A stretch of 60,640 bases of DNA from an uncultured Candidatus Saccharibacteria bacterium (GCA_964543075.1 CAZIVT010000003.1:1-60640); one strand, 5' to 3'. Positions 5,621 through 50,582 are shown, counted from the first letter of the stretch. Notes: generated from the letters alone by a model not told the origin. Numbers and translations are program-made.

Positions 5621-6616
5621 ATGTCTCCTCTCATCAGGGTCGGTGTCTTGCGTGGCGGACCAAGCGCGGAACATGAAGTTTCGCTCCAATCGGGCGCTCA
5701 CGTGCTCGATGTGCTCCGACGACGCCTAGACACAAAGTATCACCCGACTGATATCCTCATAGACAAGCGCGGCGTATGGCACATAGATGGTCTCCCTGTC
5801 GATCCTGTCCGTCTCCACTCCTCTGTCGATGTTGTGTTCAATGCGCTCCATGGTTCATATGGGGAAGATGGCAAGATCCAGAGCATTCTAGAAACCCACC
5901 ACATCCCGTTCACAGGGTCAGGTTCCCTAGGTTCGGCCGTCGGGATGAATAAGCTCCTCACCAAGCAAGCATTCGCGGCTCACGGCATCAAGAGTCCCTA
6001 CGCAAAAGAGGTCGATGCTGATGGGATTCTTAGTGATGCACAGGAAATAGCGCACACCCTCTTTCGTTTATTCCTTTTACCAGCCGTAGTCAAGCCTGCA
6101 TCCAGCGGCTCATCTGTCGGAGTTTCAGTGGTCAGATCGTTCGCTGAGCTTGTCCCGGCGCTTCGACAAGCAGCCGCCCATGGAGGGACTGTCATCATCG
6201 AGGAGTTCATCCCCGGCACCGAGGCCACCTGCGGCGTCATCGAAGGATTCCGCGGACATGACCTCTATACCTTGCCTCCAGTGGAGATCAGGCCGCACGC
6301 TGGATTTTTTGACTATGAAGCCAAATACGCCGGCAAGTCCCAGGAGATCGTTCCCGCTACTTTCTCTGAGCACATCAAGCGTTCCTTGGAGGGATTGGCC
6401 GCCACGATCCATCGTTCGCTCGGGCTCCGGCACTATTCGCGGTCTGATTTCATCATCCATCCACGTCGTGGCATCTATGTGCTCGAGGTCAATACACTAC
6501 CTGGCCTGACAGGGGAGTCTCTCATGCCTAAAGCTTTGCGCGCTGTTGGCAGTGATACACATGAGCTGATCGACCATGTCATCAGGCTGGCGGTCGGCCA
6601 GAGGTTCAACCTCTAG
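5621..6616 (+). CDS. ddl: D-alanine--D-alanine ligase
   Basis: GGPSAEHEVSLQSG, ALHGSYGEDG, GSSVGV, FFDYEAKY, LEVNTLPGLT. Confidence 0.95.
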   Translation: MSPLIRVGVLRGGPSAEHEVSLQSGAHVLDVLRRRLDTKYHPTDILIDKRGVWHIDGLPVDPVRLHSSVDVVFNALHGSYGEDGKIQSILETHHIPFTGSGSLGSAVGMNKLLTKQAFAAHGIKSPYAKEVDADGILSDAQEIAHTLFRLFLLPAVVKPASSGSSVGVSVVRSFAELVPALRQAAAHGGTVIIEEFIPGTEATCGVIEGFRGHDLYTLPPVEIRPHAGFFDYEAKYAGKSQEIVPATFSEHIKRSLEGLAATIHRSLGLRHYSRSDFIIHPRRGIYVLEVNTLPGLTGESLMPKALRAVGSDTHELIDHVIRLAVGQRFNL

Positions 6617-11637: not shown

Positions 11638-11967
11638 ATGACTAGAACTATCGCACAGACATATCATATCGTTCGTGACTATCGCAGGATCATCGCGCTT
11701 GCGCTGATCGCCGCATGTGTCGCATCCGCGATGTTCTATGCTTCGGGGATCTATAGCGCCATCTCGTATAGCATGGCTATCCGTGTAGTCAACCAGGATA
11801 TCAGCAAGGCCATGTCTGATATCCAAGATCTCGATGGACAATATGCGAAGCTCTCTGCTTCTATCACGCCTGATCTGCTCCAGGCGCATGGGTTCGAAGT
11901 GGGCGATGTCAGCGCATTCATATCGCGTAGCGCATCCCTGGGCTTGGTACATGGCAATGGATTCTAA
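11638..11967 (+). CDS. FtsL-position single-TM coiled-coil protein
   Basis: Basic N-terminus, one TM helix, coiled coil; lies between rsmH and the PBP gene. Confidence 0.65.
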   Translation: MTRTIAQTYHIVRDYRRIIALALIAACVASAMFYASGIYSAISYSMAIRVVNQDISKAMSDIQDLDGQYAKLSASITPDLLQAHGFEVGDVSAFISRSASLGLVHGNGF

Positions 11968-13666
11968 ACATGTCCTCAGGGCGCGCGTAGTGCTCTCGAT
12001 CATCATCCTCCTGGCGGCGGGGCTCGTCTCGACGCTCTATGATACTCAGATCTCTAGCGGCTCGGGCTATGTAGCAAAAGCAGATCGACAATATCTGCCT
12101 CCTCGCGCGACTTCGTTCGATCGAGGTCGCATCCTGATGTCGTCTCTCGACGGGACGCATCCTGCCGCCGCCGGTCTGACATCTACATATGAGATATCCA
12201 TGAATCCGAGCCGTCTGACCGATCCTACTGGCGCATATGATGCCCTCGCGCAGTATATCGACATCGATCAGGAGGACTTCATGCGTAAGGCGGCTCTCTC
12301 TGATGACCCCTACGAAGAGATCGCGCGTAAGGCAGACGAATCTACCGCCCAATCGATATCGGCTCTCGCGTTGCAGGGCATCGTGGTGACAGCAGAGAAC
12401 AAACGCTCATATCCGAGCGGTCTAGCTCCACATATCATTGGCATCGTCGGAGAGGGGGCATCTGGCAACATAGAGGGTAAGTACGGACTGGAGCGAGTCT
12501 ACGACCAGGTATTGGCGAGATCAGGGGGGTATGGCGGAAGCCGATCGGTATTTGCTGATATATTCACAGGCATATCGACTGACCATGCAGACTCATATGA
12601 TCAAGGAGATATCATCACATCCATCGAGCCGACAGTCCAAGCATATCTCGAGAGCGTGCTCGAGAAGACTTCTGATGTATGGCATCCAGACAATATCGGC
12701 GCCATCGTCATGGATCCTCGGACGGGCGCCATCATCGCCGCCGCGTCACTGCCATCATTCGACCCCAATGACCTCTCGGATCTCGATGATCCTGCGGTGC
12801 TATCCAATCTGCTCGTCGAGAGAGTCGATGAGATGGGTTCTATCTTGAAACCGTTGACTGTCGCGATCGGGCTGGATTCGGGTGCGGTCAGTCCGACGTG
12901 GACATATGAGGACAGAGGGACCATGACGCTCGATGGCCGCAAGATATCCAACTATGATGGTAAGGCGCGTGGACGAGTCGGTTTGCAGGAGATATTGAGC
13001 CAGTCTCTCAATATGGGCGCGGCGACAGTGGCGCTGGAGACGGGGAGAAGCGAATTTTCCAGATACTTCCTATCGTTCGGACTCGGAGAGAAGACGGGCA
13101 TCGATCAGCCCAACGAGGCAGCTGCTCTGGTCAGGAACCTAGAGTCGGGCCGTGATATCGAGATAGCCACTGCGTCATATGGGCAAGGCATCGCGATTTC
13201 ACCGATCGTCATGACTCGCGCGTTGGCTGTTCTAGCCAACGGAGGGATGCTGATCAAGCCTCACTTTGCTGAAGAGATCGATTATGTAGATGGGACCGTG
13301 GAGAAGATCGATCATGGCGCGCCTGAACGCGTGCTCAAAGCGGAAAGCGTGGAGTACGTGACGCGTATGCTCGTCAAGGTGGTGGATGAGGCCCTGCGCG
13401 GAGGCAACCTGAAGATCGAGGGATATAGCGTCGCCGCCAAGACGGGCACCGCGCAGATCCCCGATTCGGCCAATCGCGACTACTATGATGATCGCTATCT
13501 CCACTCGTTTTTCGGCTATTTCCCGGCATATGACGCCAAGTTCCTCATCTTCCTCTATCAAAAGTATCCCAAAGGCGCGCAGTACGCCTCGGAGACGCTG
13601 GCGGAACCTTTCCATGAATTGACCAAATTCCTCATCCGATACTACAATATTCCGCCGGACAGATGA
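11951..13666 (+). CDS. Class B penicillin-binding protein (FtsI/PBP2-like)
   Basis: N-terminal TM, DRGRI dimerisation domain, EMGSILKP (SxxK), SLN (SxN), KTGTAQ. Confidence 0.93.
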   Translation: MAMDSKHVLRARVVLSIIILLAAGLVSTLYDTQISSGSGYVAKADRQYLPPRATSFDRGRILMSSLDGTHPAAAGLTSTYEISMNPSRLTDPTGAYDALAQYIDIDQEDFMRKAALSDDPYEEIARKADESTAQSISALALQGIVVTAENKRSYPSGLAPHIIGIVGEGASGNIEGKYGLERVYDQVLARSGGYGGSRSVFADIFTGISTDHADSYDQGDIITSIEPTVQAYLESVLEKTSDVWHPDNIGAIVMDPRTGAIIAAASLPSFDPNDLSDLDDPAVLSNLLVERVDEMGSILKPLTVAIGLDSGAVSPTWTYEDRGTMTLDGRKISNYDGKARGRVGLQEILSQSLNMGAATVALETGRSEFSRYFLSFGLGEKTGIDQPNEAAALVRNLESGRDIEIATASYGQGIAISPIVMTRALAVLANGGMLIKPHFAEEIDYVDGTVEKIDHGAPERVLKAESVEYVTRMLVKVVDEALRGGNLKIEGYSVAAKTGTAQIPDSANRDYYDDRYLHSFFGYFPAYDAKFLIFLYQKYPKGAQYASETLAEPFHELTKFLIRYYNIPPDR

Positions 13667-25998: not shown

Positions 25999-28971
25999 AT
26001 GAAACCTGATTCATCTCGGTCATTCCTGCATAGCAAACCTTTCACCTACCTCGCGCTCTCCGCCCTCATCCTCAAGGCGTTCGTCTCCACCGATCGAGCC
26101 GTACCTCCGGCGGCCCCCATCTCACGCGCCGACGATCCCAACACCCGCTCCATATCCACACTCCCCATCCCGTCTCGTACCTACCCGGGTCTCCTCTCCA
26201 TACCCACTGCCCATGCCGCGGAAGGGGATGAGGTCATCCCCCAGCGTTCTCTCTTGGCCGCCGTCGGAGACGGCGTCAAGTCCGTCTGGGGTCGCTTCAC
26301 TGCGCTTTTCACCCCGCGTACCGTCTCAGAGGTCGTCACTGAGGACATCCTGCCATATCCGACCGCTCCCGTCATCCCGGCCACATCCACCGAGCCTGTC
26401 ATCGTCAGAGAATACGTCCCCACTCCCGTCCAGCAGATCCCCGTCTTCACCGGCCTCACCTACGCCGACGTCGATCGTCGTATCGCGGCCGCCCTCGCCT
26501 CCATCCCTCAGGGCACCGCCTCCGTCGATCTCACTCCTGTCTATGACTACATCAGGAGACAGGCCAATGTCACGGCCGAATCAGCATCCCGCAATTCCAA
26601 GGGCATCGCCGAAGACACCGTCACCGACGGCTCCCAGTGTTTATCGGCCATATCCCTCTCCCTCACCACCCCTCTTGCCGTTTCCTCGGGAGGCACCGGT
26701 ACCTCCACCTCCGCCTATGGCAAGCTCCTCCTCGGCAATGCCACCGGAGGCTACAACCTCGTCGCCACCTCATCCCTGGGTATCTCCGGGGGGGGCTTCG
26801 ATGTGAGTGAGCTCAATACGCTGGCTACGATCGCAGTAGGTGACTCCAATGTCGTCTCAGGTATCTATGCGAGTGCGTTTGGGTACAACAACACCGCTTC
26901 AGGTCAAAACTCCTCCGCCTCTGGTTACCTCAACACCGCTTCAGGTGATTTCTCCTCCGCCTTTGGCTTCAACAACACCGCTTCAGGTCAAAACTCCTCC
27001 GCCTCTGGCTTCTACAACACCGCTTCATGTCTAGGCTCCTCCGCCTCTGGTTACTCCAACACCGCTTCAGGATACTACTCCTCCGCCTTTGGCTTCAACA
27101 ACACCGCTTCAGGTCAAAGCTCCTCCGCCTTTGGCTTCTACAACACCGCTTCAGATAGTCTCTCCTCCGCCTTTGGCTACTACAACACCGCTTCAGGATA
27201 CTACTCCTCCGCCTTTGGCTACCGCAACACCGCTTCAGGGTATTGCTCCTCCGCCTCTGGTTACCTCAACACCGCCGCCGCCCTCAACTCCTCCGCCTTC
27301 GGCCGCTCCAACTTCACCGGCACAGGTGGTCTGGCATCCATACAGGTAGGTGTGCTCAACAACTCTACAGGTGGGACGCTCAATACTACCACCGGTGCAA
27401 TTACAGGAACACCGTCCGCCTGCACCACGGTGGGTAGACTGACCACGGCTGTGGGTGTGTGCAACAAGACGGCAGGTAATCTTGCGAGTGCGTTTGGGTA
27501 CAACAACACCGCTTCAGGGTATCGCTCCTCCGCCTTTGGCTCCCGCAACACCGCTTCAGGGTGTCTCTCCTCCGCCTCTGGTTACCTCAACACCGCTTCA
27601 GGTCAAAACTCCTCCGCCTCTGGTTACCTCAACACCGCTTCAGGTCAAAACTCCTCCGCCTTTGGCTACTACAACACCGCTTCAGGGTGTCTCTCCTCCG
27701 CCTTTGGCTACTACAACACCGCTTCAGGGTGTCTCTCCTCCGCCTTCGGATCCTGCTTCACCAATGCCACCAGCTCCTCAGTAGCCATAGGCACCTGTGG
27801 AGGCTGGCTCAACGTCCAATCGAACGGCTGTCTCACCACCGCCACCGGAGCCTATCTCACCACCGGAGGCACCTGGTCCAACGCGTCCTCGCGTGATCTC
27901 AAGGAAAACTTCACCACCCTCGATCCCCAGGACATCCTCTCCAAGATATCAGCCCTCCCCATCACGCGCTGGAACTACAAGATAGAGGATGACTCCGTCA
28001 CCCATATCGGACCTGTCGCCCAGGACTTCTACAACATCTTCAACACAGGCGGCTCCGATACCTCTATATCCACCATAGACCCCGCAGGTGTCGCCCTCCT
28101 CGGCATCCAGGGCCTCTCCACCCGTGTCGATCGTCTCAATGCCTCATCTACCGCTTCCACCCTGTCTCTGTCATCACTGTCCAAGAGCTTGGATGCGCAG
28201 AGGCTCAGCATCGAAGGTGTCCTGAATTCTGTCTCTTCTACCGCCTCTACGACTGCCGCCGCGATCGCCTCCTTGGATGTGAAGATAGGTCAATTGGCCG
28301 CACGGATAGGGGATATCGAATCCGGTGCGTCTACGACTACCGAGACGATCATCGTCCAGTCCGATGACCAGAGCATCATCTCCTACCTCGCCTCCTTCGG
28401 CGCGCGAGTCATAGATGGCGTCATCCACTTCGTCGATGTCGTCGTCGAGCGCCTCACGGTCGGATCGCTGACGATCAAGAATGAGGCCGATGTCAGCCAG
28501 ACCGGATTCGTCATCTATGATCGCGCCACCCATCGTCCCATCTGCGTCTATTTCGAGAACGGCGTGCAGAAGACTGCTCCAGGAGAATGTGACGACGAGG
28601 ATGTCGTCTCCGATGAAAACATCCCCGACGATACGAATAGTGCAGAAGAAGACGATCAACCGGACGTCGTCGATGGTGAAACAAAGGTGGACCAAGATAG
28701 CGATCAGGCCACTTCTACGCCTGCCGTACAGGAAGAGGCATCAACATCTGACGAGGAAGATGAACGAGCCGCTTCTGATCAAGAGCAGGGAACTGGCGAC
28801 ACCCAGGACAACTCCGAAGATGTCTCCGATGACCAGAATGTTCAAGCAGACGATCAAATAGCCGATGAATCCGTCGATACCCAAGAAGAGATTGTCGAAG
28901 ACGCAGAAACTCCTCCTGCCCAAGAAGAGTCTCCGTCTGCTGATGTGCAGGAAAACTCGGAAGGCAACTGA
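25999..28971 (+). CDS. Trimeric fibre/adhesin: N-terminal membrane/signal segment, YadA-head-like 14-aa repeats, S74 autocleaving chaperone, coiled coil, acidic tail
   Basis: 18 ASGxxSSA(F/S)GxxNT repeats; WSNASSRDLKEN...WNYK...HIGPVAQDF; D/E-rich last ~140 aa. Confidence 0.82.
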   Translation: MKPDSSRSFLHSKPFTYLALSALILKAFVSTDRAVPPAAPISRADDPNTRSISTLPIPSRTYPGLLSIPTAHAAEGDEVIPQRSLLAAVGDGVKSVWGRFTALFTPRTVSEVVTEDILPYPTAPVIPATSTEPVIVREYVPTPVQQIPVFTGLTYADVDRRIAAALASIPQGTASVDLTPVYDYIRRQANVTAESASRNSKGIAEDTVTDGSQCLSAISLSLTTPLAVSSGGTGTSTSAYGKLLLGNATGGYNLVATSSLGISGGGFDVSELNTLATIAVGDSNVVSGIYASAFGYNNTASGQNSSASGYLNTASGDFSSAFGFNNTASGQNSSASGFYNTASCLGSSASGYSNTASGYYSSAFGFNNTASGQSSSAFGFYNTASDSLSSAFGYYNTASGYYSSAFGYRNTASGYCSSASGYLNTAAALNSSAFGRSNFTGTGGLASIQVGVLNNSTGGTLNTTTGAITGTPSACTTVGRLTTAVGVCNKTAGNLASAFGYNNTASGYRSSAFGSRNTASGCLSSASGYLNTASGQNSSASGYLNTASGQNSSAFGYYNTASGCLSSAFGYYNTASGCLSSAFGSCFTNATSSSVAIGTCGGWLNVQSNGCLTTATGAYLTTGGTWSNASSRDLKENFTTLDPQDILSKISALPITRWNYKIEDDSVTHIGPVAQDFYNIFNTGGSDTSISTIDPAGVALLGIQGLSTRVDRLNASSTASTLSLSSLSKSLDAQRLSIEGVLNSVSSTASTTAAAIASLDVKIGQLAARIGDIESGASTTTETIIVQSDDQSIISYLASFGARVIDGVIHFVDVVVERLTVGSLTIKNEADVSQTGFVIYDRATHRPICVYFENGVQKTAPGECDDEDVVSDENIPDDTNSAEEDDQPDVVDGETKVDQDSDQATSTPAVQEEASTSDEEDERAASDQEQGTGDTQDNSEDVSDDQNVQADDQIADESVDTQEEIVEDAETPPAQEESPSADVQENSEGN
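26854..27762 (+). repeat. 42-nt coding tandem repeats (11 units 26854-27315, 7 units 27469-27762)
   Basis: Core ctcctccgcct.tgg.t.c..caacaccgcttcagg repeated in frame. Confidence 0.92.
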
Positions 28972-45947: not shown

Positions 45948-46102
45948 TGGAAACTTCCTTTCTGTTTTCTATGAATGTTGTCGATCGATTATCCTCTAGT
46001 CTCTGTAAAGAGTCCATTTCTAAAGGAACAGCGACTGATGATAGTAACACGATATATGTATTTATGCAAGGAGGGCGGGGCTGGAGGTGCCACCTCCTAA
46101 AC

Positions 46103-46156
46103 TTTATCAAAATTTTAGGAAAACTTTATCAGGATTTTATCTCACTCGTGTATCAT
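46103..46156 (+). promoter_or_regulatory. 11-bp-period TTTAT direct-repeat array plus -10 TATCAT
   Basis: Half-sites at 46103, 46114, 46125, 46136; TATCAT 46151-46156; ATG 46164. Confidence 0.65.
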
Positions 46157-46163
46157 ATGCGCC

Positions 46164-47270
46164 ATGCTTACGATATATTCTGCAGAACCTACCACAGCCG
46201 TCGAAGCTCTCGACCAGATCATGAGATATGCCGTCGTTTCGCGTGCCTCTGATATGCATTGCGATCCAGGACAGAGAGATATACATATCCGCGCGAGGAT
46301 AGATGGCTATATCGTCACTGCGGGCACGGTACCCGCACGATTCCATCCAGAGCTCATCTCACGCGCCAAGATACTCGCCGGCGCGCGTACAGACATCCAC
46401 AGTGTCCCACAGGACGGTCGATGGATGGAGACCATAGATGATAGACGATATCATGTGCGAGCGTCATTCATGCCTACATATCATGGGGAGAATATAGTCC
46501 TCCGCCTGCTTCCCGCAGAGGCACAGGAGGACATATCGCTCTCTGCGCTCGGCTTCTCTCCTGATCACGTAGGCGCCATAGAGAGCGCTCTCCGTCGACC
46601 CTCAGGGCTCATCGTAGTGACTGGGCCGACTGGTTCGGGCAAGACGACGACGCTCCATGCCTGCCTTTCCATCAAGTCTCGCGAACCGATCTCGGTCATC
46701 ACGCTCGAGGATCCAGTCGAATACGAAGTCCCCGGGGTCCGTCAGATCCATATACGCCACACGCACGGGGTCACCTTTGCATCCGGTCTACGAGCCGCCC
46801 TGCGACAGGACCCCGATGTGATCATGGTCGGTGAGATCAGAGATGCTGAGACCGCTCACGTCGCCATTCACACCGCGCTGACAGGACATCTCGTCCTGTC
46901 GACGATCCATACCACATCTGCCTTTGAGACGATATCTCGCCTATCTGATATGGGTATCGATCGATATCTGCTCGCTTCGACGCTCAAGCTGATCATCGCT
47001 CAGCGTCTCGTCCGTCTGATGTGCCAGGGATGCTTCTCGATAGGCTGTGAAGATTGTGATGATGTCGGATATAGAGGTCGGACTGTCATAGCCGAAGTCT
47101 GCGAGGTCGACGCGGACATGAGGAACATGATCATGAGGCACGAGGGGATCGACGCATGTATATCACTTGCGCGATCTAGGGGATTCAGACCTATGCGCGA
47201 AGACGCCCTAGAAAAAGAAGAGTGGGGCATCACCACGAGAGAGGAGACCATGAGAGCGCTCTATGAGTAG
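46164..47270 (+). CDS. GspE/PilB family secretion ATPase (short, no N-terminal domain)
   Basis: SDMHCDP, GPTGSGKTTTL, TLEDPVEY, LRQDPDVIMVGEIRD, tetra-Cys motif. Confidence 0.92.
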   Translation: MLTIYSAEPTTAVEALDQIMRYAVVSRASDMHCDPGQRDIHIRARIDGYIVTAGTVPARFHPELISRAKILAGARTDIHSVPQDGRWMETIDDRRYHVRASFMPTYHGENIVLRLLPAEAQEDISLSALGFSPDHVGAIESALRRPSGLIVVTGPTGSGKTTTLHACLSIKSREPISVITLEDPVEYEVPGVRQIHIRHTHGVTFASGLRAALRQDPDVIMVGEIRDAETAHVAIHTALTGHLVLSTIHTTSAFETISRLSDMGIDRYLLASTLKLIIAQRLVRLMCQGCFSIGCEDCDDVGYRGRTVIAEVCEVDADMRNMIMRHEGIDACISLARSRGFRPMREDALEKEEWGITTREETMRALYE

Positions 47271-48324
47271 ATCCATATTCACAGTTCGCTGGAAGCGAAG
47301 GGAGGTGATGTCTCTACTCGAACAGCTCGAGCTCTTCCTGTCTGCGGGGCTGGCTATAGATCGCGCCTTGTCTGCGGTGCAGGATGTCATGTCTCCGCGT
47401 CGTTCGTCAGATATCGGACGTATATGCGGCATGGTCAGGGAGGGGAGAGGCCTGTCGGAGTCTATGTCTGCATATGTACAGCTCCCTGATCAGTTGTGGG
47501 ATCTCATACGCCATGGCGAGGCCTCTGGCACCATCGCTGAGGCCATGTCTCTGGCGAGGTCTATCCTGGAGAAGGCAGACGTTATCCGGTCCAAGTGCGT
47601 ATCGGCCAGCATATATCCTATCGTGATAGCCGTGCTGTCATCTATACTCGTCATCGGATTGATGCGCGGAGTCATGCCGCAGATAGCGCCACTGCTCGCA
47701 GGTCTCGACGCTGATCTACCCATCCTCACGCGGATCGTCATGCGTTGTTCCGACCTGATGACGTCGTACGGCATATATGCGTTGTGCGTCGGGATATGCA
47801 TGTCTATCGCCGCACGGTCCGCATATCGGCACAGCGTCACCATACGATGGTATGTCCACAGCATATTGATGGCTACGCCTGTGATCGGCATGATCTCTGT
47901 CATGCACGCATGGTCACTCTTCTTCAGGTCGAGCGGTTCTATGATCCAGGCTGGCCTTCCTGCATCGTCTGCTTATGCCACGATGTCATCATGTATGACG
48001 CTGTTGCCACTCCGCGACCGCACATCGACGAGCAGTTCGCTCATCGGATCTGGGTCCACGTGGGCATCTATCATGAGGGATATGTCACTGCGCGTGCCTC
48101 GCTCAGCGGTCGCTCTCATATCTGCAGGAGAAGCATCTGGTCAGCTCGGCCTATCGCTCATACGTGCCGCTGATGCCGCGGATCGCGATATAGAGAGGAT
48201 GATCGCCTCCACTGTGTCACTGATCGAGCCTGCCCTCATGGCGATCATGGGGACAGCCGTCGGTGCGATAGCTTTATCCATAATGATGCCCATATATGAG
48301 ATGTCGAGAATATTGCAAGGATGA
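47263..48324 (+). CDS. GspF/PilC family inner membrane platform protein
   Basis: LSAGLAI, GEASG twice, YPIVI, LIEPALM...IMMPIY. Confidence 0.88.
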   Translation: MSRSIFTVRWKRREVMSLLEQLELFLSAGLAIDRALSAVQDVMSPRRSSDIGRICGMVREGRGLSESMSAYVQLPDQLWDLIRHGEASGTIAEAMSLARSILEKADVIRSKCVSASIYPIVIAVLSSILVIGLMRGVMPQIAPLLAGLDADLPILTRIVMRCSDLMTSYGIYALCVGICMSIAARSAYRHSVTIRWYVHSILMATPVIGMISVMHAWSLFFRSSGSMIQAGLPASSAYATMSSCMTLLPLRDRTSTSSSLIGSGSTWASIMRDMSLRVPRSAVALISAGEASGQLGLSLIRAADAADRDIERMIASTVSLIEPALMAIMGTAVGAIALSIMMPIYEMSRILQG

Positions 48325-49777
48325 CCGCATACGATGCCGAGCGACCGTAGATGAGGATGGCATGATCCTGGTGGATGCTTTGATCGCCTGCTCGCTCGGC
48401 GCTCTCTGTGCCTGGATGCTCACTCAGGCACACGTGGATGCCCGTAGATCGTTCGCGCGCGCATACGAGCGCGATGATCTGATCGATGTATATCTAGAAC
48501 ACGCGCACCAGTTCGAGGATATGCGCCTCTATGAGCGACGTTCTGTGGATGTGGGACATGATGGAGGAGCAGGCACGTTCGTTGCGTCGGCAGAAGCCAA
48601 GCCGTATAGCGACGAGCTGATACAGACAGACGTGACTATCACCGGCCCATCTTCGAGCATCGTGTTCTCATCGGTCGATCGTGATCCGTCGATCCGTCAT
48701 GACATACTCAGCCGTCCGTTCTGTTCTCCTCGGATGGCCGATGGTCCACTCGGTCTATCCTGGGGGCATGACGACAGTGCTCCCACTATCGTGCCACTGC
48801 GCATGCCAGTGGATCCAGCGCTTCCGCTCACTGATATACAGGTCCGCAATGACATCGCGTATATATCCGCTGATTCGACGCGTTCATCTGACCCTGATTT
48901 GATCGTAGTGGACATCGGCGACAGGGATGATCCGGCACTCCTGTCATCTATAGACACAGGTCCAGGCATCTCGGCGATCTCGCTCGCCGGCGATCGTATA
49001 TATGCGGCCGCTGCGAGCACCGCTGCACAGATGCACATCATCCACATGGAAGATCTCTACTCTCCAGTGCTCGAGAGCAAGTATCGTTTACCGTTGCCGT
49101 ACGCGACCTCCTCGTCACCTATAGGAGAATCCATCGCCTATGCGCGTGGTGCCGTATACCTAGGTACGAGCAAGTGGGACGGCGATGAATTGGTACAGAT
49201 AGATGTCGCGGATCCATCCGATCCGACAGTCATCGCTGGTATAGATATCGGTAGTATGGTCGGAGAGATCGTGGTCGATGATGCCGCAGTCTATGCGGCC
49301 ACAGCATCTCAGGATCAGCTCATCGGTATCGACACCGACTCGATATCGGATCTTGGAGATGCGTGGTCGTTTGCTCCATCGGGCTGGCAGCGTCAAGAGG
49401 GTAGAGCGATCCGATCTTTCGAGGATTCGCTCGTGTTCGGCAGGACATCAGGAGGATTCAATATTTCCAGGGATCACGAGCTCTTTTCATGGACATTATC
49501 CACCACTTCTGAGGATGCCACCCCTAGCGGAGATCCTATATCCGTCGATGTGGCAGGCGGCATATATGGCATCATCGTCGATCAGTCCCATGTATTTGCG
49601 GCGAGCGGGGCTCTCGATAGGGAGTTTCAGGTATATGACCGGCGATTGTCATCTACGTCGATGATGTCATATCCATTGCCAGTCGCTCCACAGACCATCG
49701 CGTGCGATAGATCTATCCTGTATGTGCTCGCGCGTACAGCCCCATACATATATGAGATTACATTCAATCACGAGTGA
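48296..49777 (+). CDS. Pilin-like leader fused to a beta-propeller (LVIVD-like repeats)
   Basis: G|MILVDALIA; repeated LIVVDIGD / LVQIDVADP..P motifs. Start uncertain. Confidence 0.65.
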   Translation: MRCREYCKDDRIRCRATVDEDGMILVDALIACSLGALCAWMLTQAHVDARRSFARAYERDDLIDVYLEHAHQFEDMRLYERRSVDVGHDGGAGTFVASAEAKPYSDELIQTDVTITGPSSSIVFSSVDRDPSIRHDILSRPFCSPRMADGPLGLSWGHDDSAPTIVPLRMPVDPALPLTDIQVRNDIAYISADSTRSSDPDLIVVDIGDRDDPALLSSIDTGPGISAISLAGDRIYAAAASTAAQMHIIHMEDLYSPVLESKYRLPLPYATSSSPIGESIAYARGAVYLGTSKWDGDELVQIDVADPSDPTVIAGIDIGSMVGEIVVDDAAVYAATASQDQLIGIDTDSISDLGDAWSFAPSGWQRQEGRAIRSFEDSLVFGRTSGGFNISRDHELFSWTLSTTSEDATPSGDPISVDVAGGIYGIIVDQSHVFAASGALDREFQVYDRRLSSTSMMSYPLPVAPQTIACDRSILYVLARTAPYIYEITFNHE

Positions 49778-49967
49778 TCGGCTGCCGGCATGCAGAGGTG
49801 GACGCGCGCCAGTGCGCGCAGATAGGGGCATGTTTCTGATCGAGGCGATCATATATATCGCCATCATCTCTACATTCCTCGCGACGATGATCTCGTATCT
49901 TCACGAGATACATATGAGCTCTATTCGACTCAATCAAGATATATATGACACACGATCCCAACCATAG
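49752..49967 (+). CDS. Minor pilin/pseudopilin
   Basis: Class III signal RG|MFLIE followed by a hydrophobic helix. Confidence 0.65.
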   Translation: MRLHSITSDRLPACRGGRAPVRADRGMFLIEAIIYIAIISTFLATMISYLHEIHMSSIRLNQDIYDTRSQP

Positions 49968-50211
49968 ATCAGGGTTCATCATGACCATCGCCGTCGTCAC
50001 GCTCTCTGTGGGCGCGTTGGCATTTGCGGCAGTCACTATGGTCACAGTGTGGTCGTATATCGATAGCGTCAATGCTCGTGAGAGGCGGGTACAACGAGAC
50101 CTCAATCAGCAGTCCTGCGCCGATATCGCCCCGATCATCCATGCCAAGGATTACTTTTGGCATAGACCCACATACCTAGCTGATTTCGAGTGCACGATCG
50201 ATCCCACCTGA
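49945..50211 (+). CDS. PilX-like minor pilin
   Basis: SG|FIMTIAVV hydrophobic helix; two Cys. Confidence 0.6.
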   Translation: MTHDPNHRSGFIMTIAVVTLSVGALAFAAVTMVTVWSYIDSVNARERRVQRDLNQQSCADIAPIIHAKDYFWHRPTYLADFECTIDPT

Positions 50212-50225
50212 TGGATACGCGATAG

Positions 50226-50301
50226 TTTATCAGGATTTTATGGTTTCTTTATCGAGATTTTATGAAAAGTTTATCAGGATTTTATCTGACACTGATATCA
50301 T
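50226..50301 (+). promoter_or_regulatory. 11-bp-period TTTAT direct-repeat array plus -10 TATCAT
   Basis: Six half-sites 50226-50285; TATCAT 50296-50301. Confidence 0.68.
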
Positions 50302-50336: not shown

Positions 50337-50582
50337 ATGTCACTAGAACAAAAAGACATCGAGCTCATCGAGCACCTCGTATACAAGGCCAACGACGACG
50401 TCGCTGTATCCATCGCGCGTAGCTTCGAACGACTCGAGGAGCGCATCGATGCGGTGGAGTCTCGGCTCTATAGCCGTATCGCTGAGGGAGAGGATTCATC
50501 CGAGTCAGATAGGCAGGACATCATCGAGGCTATCCGAGATCTCAAGAATGACGTCAGAGATATGTCGCGCCATGAGTTCTAG
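50337..50582 (+). CDS. Small acidic coiled-coil hypothetical protein
   Basis: 81 aa, heptad pattern SFERLEERIDAVESRLY. Confidence 0.65.
   Translation: MSLEQKDIELIEHLVYKANDDVAVSIARSFERLEERIDAVESRLYSRIAEGEDSSESDRQDIIEAIRDLKNDVRDMSRHEF

Follow-up and report, generated by a model that had tools for sequence, protein, structure and literature searches.

The stretch analysed here (CAZIVT010000003.1:1-60640 of GCA_964543075.1; 60,640 nucleotides, hereafter the window) is contig C3 of a metagenome-assembled genome (MAG), G000, which comprises 753 kb in 30 contigs with 52% G+C and is 86% complete. It carries two arrays of TTTAT half-sites repeated in direct orientation every 11 bp, one in front of a pilus operon that begins with a short pilB, the other in front of a small gene coding for an 81-aa single-helix protein. 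Both belong to a set of eleven promoters of the same build, and we propose that these are activator-dependent promoters of a competence regulon controlled by an autoregulated two-component system, with a geometry like that of PhoB or CiaR. We give this reading, which is drawn from sequence comparisons, a probability of roughly three in four. The eleven arrays would most likely be the docking sites of the only OmpR-type response regulator of the genome.

The arrays of the window

The two arrays and their -10 elements are the following, positions being counted from the first letter of the window.

46103-46140, + strand: array 1, TTTATCAAAATTTTAGGAAAACTTTATCAGGATTTTAT, two 22-bp units, 81 bits in the genome scan described below
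46151-46156, + strand: -10 element of the pilB promoter, TATCAT, 10 nt past the last half-site, with no -35 at the usual distance
50226-50285, + strand: array 2, three 22-bp units with six perfect TTTAT half-sites, 76 bits in the genome scan
50296-50301, + strand: -10 element of the 81-aa single-helix gene, TATCAT with TG two bases 5' (TGaTATCAT)

The first-pass annotation of this DNA had reported four and six TTTAT half-sites at an 11-bp step. Step and counts stand, but one half-site of array 1 is imperfect: TTTAT, TTTAG, TTTAT and TTTAT start at 46103, 46114, 46125 and 46136, exactly 11 bp apart, at about -61, -50, -39 and -28 relative to the pilB ATG (+1), the -10 element lying at -13 to -8. 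In array 2 the half-sites start at 50226, 50237, 50248, 50259, 50270 and 50281. It had also been claimed that the last half-site is followed in both cases by exactly 10 nt and then TATCAT, and that the array covers the -35 position. Reading the sequence confirms the former (CTCACTCGTG after array 1, CTGACACTGA after array 2); as to the latter, a sigma-70 consensus scan of the window calls neither promoter since no -35 is present, the sequence at this position of pilB being ATCAGG.

The 16-mer TTTATCAGGATTTTAT, allowing up to three mismatches, has five matches in the window, every one of them within the two arrays, while shuffled windows contain 0.25 matches on average and none of 100 shuffles reaches five. 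Besides, a repeat search of the window returns a 55-nt pair of 84% identity that spans both promoters, -10 included. Another candidate promoter of the 81-aa single-helix gene, CTGACA-18-TAGCAT, was rejected, since 50296-50301 is where the layout common to the eleven promoters and to their orthologues puts the -10. At 50207-50234 a terminator-like hairpin extends over the first half-site of array 2; hairpins of this kind are equally frequent in shuffled sequence and we leave this one uninterpreted.

Eleven promoters of one architecture

Over the whole genome the same 16-mer has nine exact matches, and eleven loci are found when a few mismatches are allowed, so that the scan for the array with its -10 spacing adds nine promoters to the two of the window. 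All eleven share the succession TTTATCAAAATTTTAGGAAAAC-TTTATCAGGATTTTAT-CTCG…, then 10 nt (11 nt once), then TAnnnT; each array has four to six half-sites, no -35 is present, and most -10 elements are preceded by TGn. A position-weight scan of the genome scores these eleven sites at 59-84 bits and everything else at 12 bits or less, shifted self-hits apart, the maximum in shuffled genomes being 8 bits. As the matrix was trained on the same eleven sites, the informative part of this result is the empty gap between the scores. The downstream genes, identified with Pfam and NCBIfam, are:

Window, array 1: operon of a short PilB ATPase, PilC and three pilin-like open reading frames (ORFs)
Window, array 2: 81-aa single-helix gene
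Major pilin (N_methyl), then a D,D-carboxypeptidase
ComEC (DUF4131 and Competence domains)
Separate 296-aa gene adjoining comEC, counted as a second ComEC piece
ComM (Mg_chelatase)
rpsF-ssb-rpsR
C12, array at 6041, - strand: 964-aa secreted LCAT-like lipase
C2, array at 27798, - strand: RAYT-like Y1 transposase homologue (like the tyrosine transposases associated with repetitive extragenic palindromic, REP, sequences)
Contig C28: histidine kinase and two genes without family (315 aa and 356 aa)
C8:26731-26799 (locus L034 532-600), - strand: 69-nt tRNA-like RNA

One cis-element is therefore shared by a DNA-uptake pilus, ComEC, ComM and SSB, as would be expected of a competence regulon. The two promoters of the window had been taken as a sign of a competence or host-contact regulon: the set of DNA-uptake genes bears out the first term, and the general label of host contact has to be given up. 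The competence gene dprA (C11:~11718-12375, - strand) was considered as a further member and discarded, its promoter being an ordinary TGaTATAAT without array.

For pilB, comM and both ComEC pieces the start codon comes exactly at +24 after the 16-mer; in the case of pilB the ATG is 7 nt past the -10. This fixed distance supports independently the assignment of the -10 and implies leaderless mRNAs. The pilB mRNA is probably leaderless, and we infer the same for the mRNAs from which comM and both ComEC pieces are translated. In the window, transcription would accordingly be expected to start at 46163/46164 for pilB and at about 50308 for the 81-aa single-helix gene.

A single OmpR-type regulator adjoins an array

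A search for winged-helix response regulators, the class first invoked for these arrays, finds exactly one in the genome, and its gene adjoins the array of its partner kinase. It is the sole Trans_reg_C response regulator (C28:144-815; 90 bits for this domain and 92 bits for the receiver, REC, in the profile search). The receiver has the canonical Asp/Thr/Lys, and the protein matches OmpR/PhoB-class models of NCBIfam, none of them over an equivalog cut-off. The stop codon of the regulator gene lies within ~20 nt of the array C28:824-894, which precedes the gene of a kinase with HisKA and HATPase_c domains (C28:1051-2553). A box thus stands in front of the system's own kinase gene, as in autoregulated two-component systems; the promoter of the regulator gene itself is an ordinary extended -10 without array.

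The relatives of this regulator come from MAGs labelled Candidatus Taylorbacteria, Paceibacteria or Patescibacteria, which indicates that the source is a bacterium of the Candidate Phyla Radiation (CPR). Of the 24 genomes in the genus, 18 have exactly one Trans_reg_C gene and 22 in all have either one or two; the two devoid of it are the least complete (74-76%).

The proximity of regulator and array extends well beyond G000. We took 38 regulator loci from Paceibacteria-related MAGs, with regulators 52-64% identical, and examined 260 nt past the regulator stop: 34 show at least four TTNAN half-sites at the exact 11-bp step. Chains of at least four at steps of 7-10 or 12-15 bp are found in none of the 38 loci whichever the step, and 1,900 shuffles gave none. 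The kinase gene comes next in 13 loci, that of G000 included, and in G002 and G018 matches to the 16-mer are found directly 3' of the regulator gene. The recognition helix, SNTVEAHIRNLRKKI, is almost invariant across the 38 loci, so that its covariation with the half-site offers no test.

The first-pass annotation had supposed one activator for both the pilB/pilC/minor-pilin operon and the 81-aa single-helix gene. This idea gains support from the shared module, from the single regulator adjoining an array and from the conservation described below; the binding itself we infer.

Conservation in relatives

The 16-mer, with at most one mismatch, is present in several copies in several members of the genus (11, 8, 7, 7, 6 and 6), the reversed control giving about none. 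In G006 and G019 the module lies 5' of the orthologues of pilB, the 81-aa single-helix gene, the lipase, rpsF-ssb, comM and comEC, and also of the 296-aa gene, the RAYT-like gene and the pilin gene; that of comM is found in four further members of the genus. For the short-form pilB of wider relatives, all 14 orthologues have the phased array, the -10 and an ATG about 7 nt further on, and start codons in relatives fall at +23 to +25 after the 16-mer. The arrays are therefore conserved in front of orthologous genes, as had been expected of true regulatory sites. The dprA gene has the module in G006 and none in G000, so that membership of the regulon varies between species of a single genus.

Two observations on other genes preceded by the module may be added: at locus L032 of G019 it stands before a 365-aa PemK/MazF-like protein fused to a CYTH-like domain, and at locus L023 of G006 before a 230-aa DUF3800-like protein, both assigned by eye.

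Conservation is unequal along the array. The number of half-sites reaches six in G000 and ten in relatives. From one species to another the proximal 16-mer keeps an identity of at least 90%, while the distal units are species-specific: TTTATCAAAATTTTAGGAAAAC in G000, TTCATT…TTGATC in G006 and TTGAACAATTCTTGAACATTTT, twice, in G019. When these three genomes are compared, distal units are uniform inside each of them (identity 0.55-0.90), whereas between orthologous promoters their identity is 0.38-0.43, no more than between unrelated promoters. This looks like a concerted evolution of the whole promoter set, judging from these sequences; a second factor or an indirect readout of the DNA is a possible source of the pattern.

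How the arrays may work, and the alternatives

In the mechanism that we favour, the phosphorylated regulator would bind the half-sites as head-to-tail dimers, one per 22-bp unit, hence two dimers on array 1, and the promoter-proximal dimer would sit over the -35 position. From there it would recruit RNA polymerase carrying the primary sigma factor, in the manner of PhoB and CiaR; the -10 elements are of sigma-70 type, TG-extended and primary-sigma-like. The regulator would in this way switch on DNA uptake and, through the promoter of the kinase, amplify its own signalling.

Several points weigh against this reading. The promoters of dprA and of the regulator gene also seem to use an extended -10 with no clear -35, and since ordinary promoters do so, the missing -35 is only moderate evidence for activation, weaker than the same absence would count for in E. 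coli. The MAG is 86% complete, so that a second regulator could be missing from it. The recognition helix is near-invariant and yet the distal half-sites vary (TTTATC/TTTTAG, TTCAT/TTGAT, TTGAAC), which one unchanged regulator does not readily account for. Finally, an OmpR-type gene is present and the array at comM absent in four genomes, all from other families. Since the comM array is also absent from all 11 genomes in the order that are devoid of a Trans_reg_C gene, the co-occurrence of regulator and array is one-sided, and it is confounded by phylogeny.

The alternative that survives best, though we consider it improbable, is that the regulon is real and the arrays are read by another DNA-binding protein, or that a fast-evolving second factor reads the distal units and the OmpR-type regulator the proximal 16-mer only. 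Distal units that are uniform within each genome and differ between species, facing an invariant helix, are what such a factor would produce, and its gene might be in the missing part of the assembly. But another reader would leave the adjacency of regulator and array in 34 of 38 loci to be explained; direct repeats stepping by 11 bp are the signature of OmpR/PhoB-type binding, the TTNAN core is kept in all variants, and no genome checked for both has the comM array without the regulator.

Slightly less probable again is that the regulator represses: the TG-extended -10 would be sufficient by itself, and the arrays would keep RNA polymerase away until a signal removes the regulator. OmpR-family proteins can repress, and an extended -10 with no -35 seems to be enough at other promoters of this genome. 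The geometry argues for activation nevertheless, as the proximal dimer ends at a fixed distance, 10 nt before the -10, which is the activating class II arrangement of PhoB and CiaR (PMC3091779), and the arrays reach upstream, covering neither the -10 nor the start site. Moreover the regulon has weak -10 hexamers (TACGCT, TAGAGT, TATCGT) compared with TATAAT and TATACT at dprA and at the regulator gene.

Much less credit can be given to a promoter of an alternative sigma factor, by analogy with the ComX/SigH competence sigmas. A second sigma gene, the sole extra one, does exist (region C8:16478-16678; 192 aa, of extracytoplasmic function, ECF, type, with an anti-sigma-like neighbour), and the proximal CAGGATTT loosely resembles SigH -35 boxes. 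Yet the element is iterated four to ten times at the step of a helical turn, as no sigma -35 is known to be; the -10 is of primary-sigma type and the sites are not a single -35/-10 pair. In wider relatives the AGGA is not conserved and the phased TTTAT with the TGnTAnnnT -10 is kept.

It is equally hard to sustain that the arrays derive from a mobile or REP-like repeat, or that they are mere A/T tracts in phase (curved DNA, UP-element-like) with no dedicated regulator: 38-bp arrays are near-identical within the genome, spacers included, and this genome is rich in dispersed hairpin repeats and has a RAYT-like gene, but every copy is co-oriented with its downstream gene at a fixed distance from -10 and start codon, lacks terminal inverted repeats, is confined to one functional gene set and is found 5' of orthologous genes in many species despite changed distal sequences.

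One of these dispersed elements lies beside array 1, outside the repeat array:

46083-46097, no strand assigned: perfect palindrome GGAGGTGCCACCTCC, just 5' of array 1

It has six exact copies in the genome (that of the window, C6:2895, C6:4611, C7:10281, C7:10625 and C20:5267). Longer, related hairpins stand directly 5' of four of the eleven arrays.

Genes of the window and other targets

The genes downstream of the two arrays of the window are listed below.

46164-47270, + strand: short-form PilB/GspE/ComGA-family assembly ATPase, 368 aa (Pfam T2SSE, 5e-106)
47263-48324, + strand: PilC/GspF/ComGB-family platform protein, 353 aa (Pfam T2SSF, 6e-31; NCBIfam GspF/PilC/ComGB), overlapping the ATPase gene
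48296-49777, + strand: 493-aa ORF with an N-terminal hydrophobic pilin-like segment (…DG/MILVDALIACSLGALCAWML)
49722-49967, + strand: 81-aa ORF, candidate minor pilin with a prepilin-type N-terminus (…RG/MFLIEAIIYIAIISTFL), a motif seen by eye; no Pfam match
49945-50211, + strand: 88-aa ORF closing the pilus operon, with a hydrophobic N-terminal segment (…SG/FIMTIAVVTLSVGALAFAAV); no family match
50337-50582, + strand: 81-aa single-helix protein, conserved regulon member, predicted to form a coiled coil

The ATPase matches the NCBIfam ComGA model from end to end (2-266 of 267), yet under its cut-off. The related genomes examined each have one orthologue of this short pilB (56-70% identity) besides two or three long PilB paralogues, from which the pilB/pilC cluster of the window is set apart as a short-form, ComG-like pilus operon. 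In G000 a second type IV pilus set is found on contig C2 (locus L003), with a long PilB of 469 aa, a stand-alone receiver of 141 aa and a PilT of 352 aa; this pilB-REC-pilT cluster has no array, so that the short ATPase of the window belongs to a separate pilus of competence type. The 493-aa ORF matches nothing in Pfam or NCBIfam and, from its N-terminus, may be a large minor pilin or a tip protein. The 88-aa ORF stops 15 nt 5' of array 2.

The 81-aa single-helix protein belongs to a family without Pfam domain or annotation, represented by 437 related clusters in Patescibacteria, of 60-70% identity and with 22 invariant columns. AlphaFold2 models it as one long helix from residue 5 to residue 80 (predicted local distance difference test, pLDDT, 94.7). 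Apart from G006 and G019, the module is found at its orthologue in L060, where the gene lies beside the regulator. The window also contains, at 226-954 on the + strand, an ORF of ~300 aa that has two receiver (Response_reg) domains but lacks an output domain.

Outside the window, the 964-aa lipase has a signal peptide, a right-handed beta-helix and an LCAT/lipase alpha-beta hydrolase domain; it may act on host membranes during the acquisition of DNA or nutrients. In the tRNA-like RNA the D arm is absent; the acceptor stem counts 7 bp, the "anticodon" stem 10 bp with the loop CUUACCA, and the T arm is canonical. This RNA scores 32 bits with the Rfam tRNA model (cut-off 29), ARAGORN makes no call, and a normal tRNA-Val(UAC) is present elsewhere in the genome. 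Among 40 relatives only two partial homologues were found, and no array is visible in G020.

A predicted small peptide upstream of the kinase

Between the array and the kinase gene, at C28:918-1045 (locus L035), we find a hairpin, GTTATGTGTCGACATAAC, with which the transcript driven by this array would begin, followed by an ORF of 27 aa, MTHTSLSYRNIVHSDHDATGEFAPWNS, at C28:962-1045. The hairpin is present in 32 loci, with five of its eight pairs changed on both sides and G-U wobbles on the sense strand; an Rfam search of this kinase leader gave no family. The encoded peptide would have 26-33 aa. In seven genomes, G000 included, whose kinase has the long multi-pass membrane sensor, it ends with [A/V]PWN[S/D/G/N]-stop. 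At like positions of this C-terminus the proline is written CCC, CCA, CCG or CCT and the stop TGA, TAA or TAG: such synonymous variation is a coding signature and points to the peptide itself being under selection. In L050, which is among the seven, there is no intact frame initiated by ATG, and other relatives have shorter ORFs beginning with M-x-[RHK]-x-S-S-[LS].

The neighbourhood of the kinase varies among the genomes that bear the peptide. A ComQ-like enzyme modifying the peptide was considered and dropped, no partner gene being conserved. The 315-aa and 356-aa genes that follow the kinase in G000 have no Pfam match even at E values up to 10; the 356-aa protein has no homologue in a word-indexed protein search, and the 315-aa protein a relative in only one of eight genomes.

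It is tempting, if rather doubtful, to see in this array-driven peptide an autoinducer or a co-sensor of the kinase, which would make DNA uptake a self-inducing, collective or host-contact decision. Should it be so, the programme would co-induce the secreted lipase, the RAYT-like enzyme, the tRNA-like RNA without D arm and the single-helix protein, and the circuit would recall ComX/ComP/ComA or ComC/ComD/ComE.

Significance and comparison with known systems

Patescibacteria, or CPR bacteria, lack nucleotide synthesis and are enriched in genes for the machinery of DNA uptake. A perspective on Patescibacteria published in 2024 mentions competence six times, and promoter, transcription factor, two-component system or response regulator never (PMC11665869); we found in the literature no description of the regulation of competence, or of such a box, in this group. 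The present module would offer a first readable handle on how these ultra-small bacteria may control natural competence. Its code is simple (phased TTTAT, 10 nt, an extended -10 and one OmpR-type system), and with it the competence regulon can be read from sequence alone in hundreds of uncultured genomes. It singles out one regulator and one kinase for biochemical tests, and among the unannotated members of the regulon the 81-aa helix protein, the LCAT-like lipase, the RAYT-like protein and the tRNA-like RNA become candidates for new functions in DNA uptake or in the exploitation of a host.

Boxes of comparable geometry are known. Like the pho box of PhoB in E. coli and the PhoP boxes of Bacillus and Streptomyces, the arrays are 11-bp direct repeats at the -35 position that end about 10 nt before the -10. 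On the pho box the effector domains of PhoB bind head to tail (PMC4415409). In the PhoB and PhoP systems, as in the one proposed here, several dimers can align, the two-component genes are under autoregulation and one box serves the regulon. The half-site differs, TTTAT(C) here against CTGTCAT or TTAACA, and so does the function, DNA uptake rather than phosphate; several targets appear leaderless, up to six half-sites are present (ten in relatives), and the C28 regulator matches no PhoB equivalog over its cut-off.

The box of CiaR in streptococci, TTTAAG-N5-TTTAAG about 10 nt before the -10 (PMC3091779), is close in form: a T-rich hexamer is repeated directly after a spacer of 5 nt, the distance to the -10 is fixed, and the reader is an OmpR-family regulator. 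The CiaRH regulon too includes small RNAs and is linked to competence. But CiaR restrains competence and has one pair of repeats per promoter, whereas here the box is found on the genes of the uptake machinery, in arrays of four to six half-sites, and the two regulators are not orthologous.

As for its targets, the regulon resembles those of ComK, ComX/SigX and Sxy/TfoX-CRP-S, in which a single cis-element precedes the pilus or pseudopilus operon, comEC, comM, ssb and dprA (the latter in G006 as regards our module). The regulator class and the site architecture are different: ComK boxes of Bacillus are AAAA-N5-TTTT dyads, the cin-box recognised by ComX/SigX in streptococci is a -10-type sigma element, and the CRP-S sites of gamma-proteobacteria, dependent on Sxy/TfoX, are 22-bp palindromes. 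The mechanism is thus of a known kind, an OmpR/PhoB-type response-regulator promoter, while the regulon and the lineage in which it is found are new.

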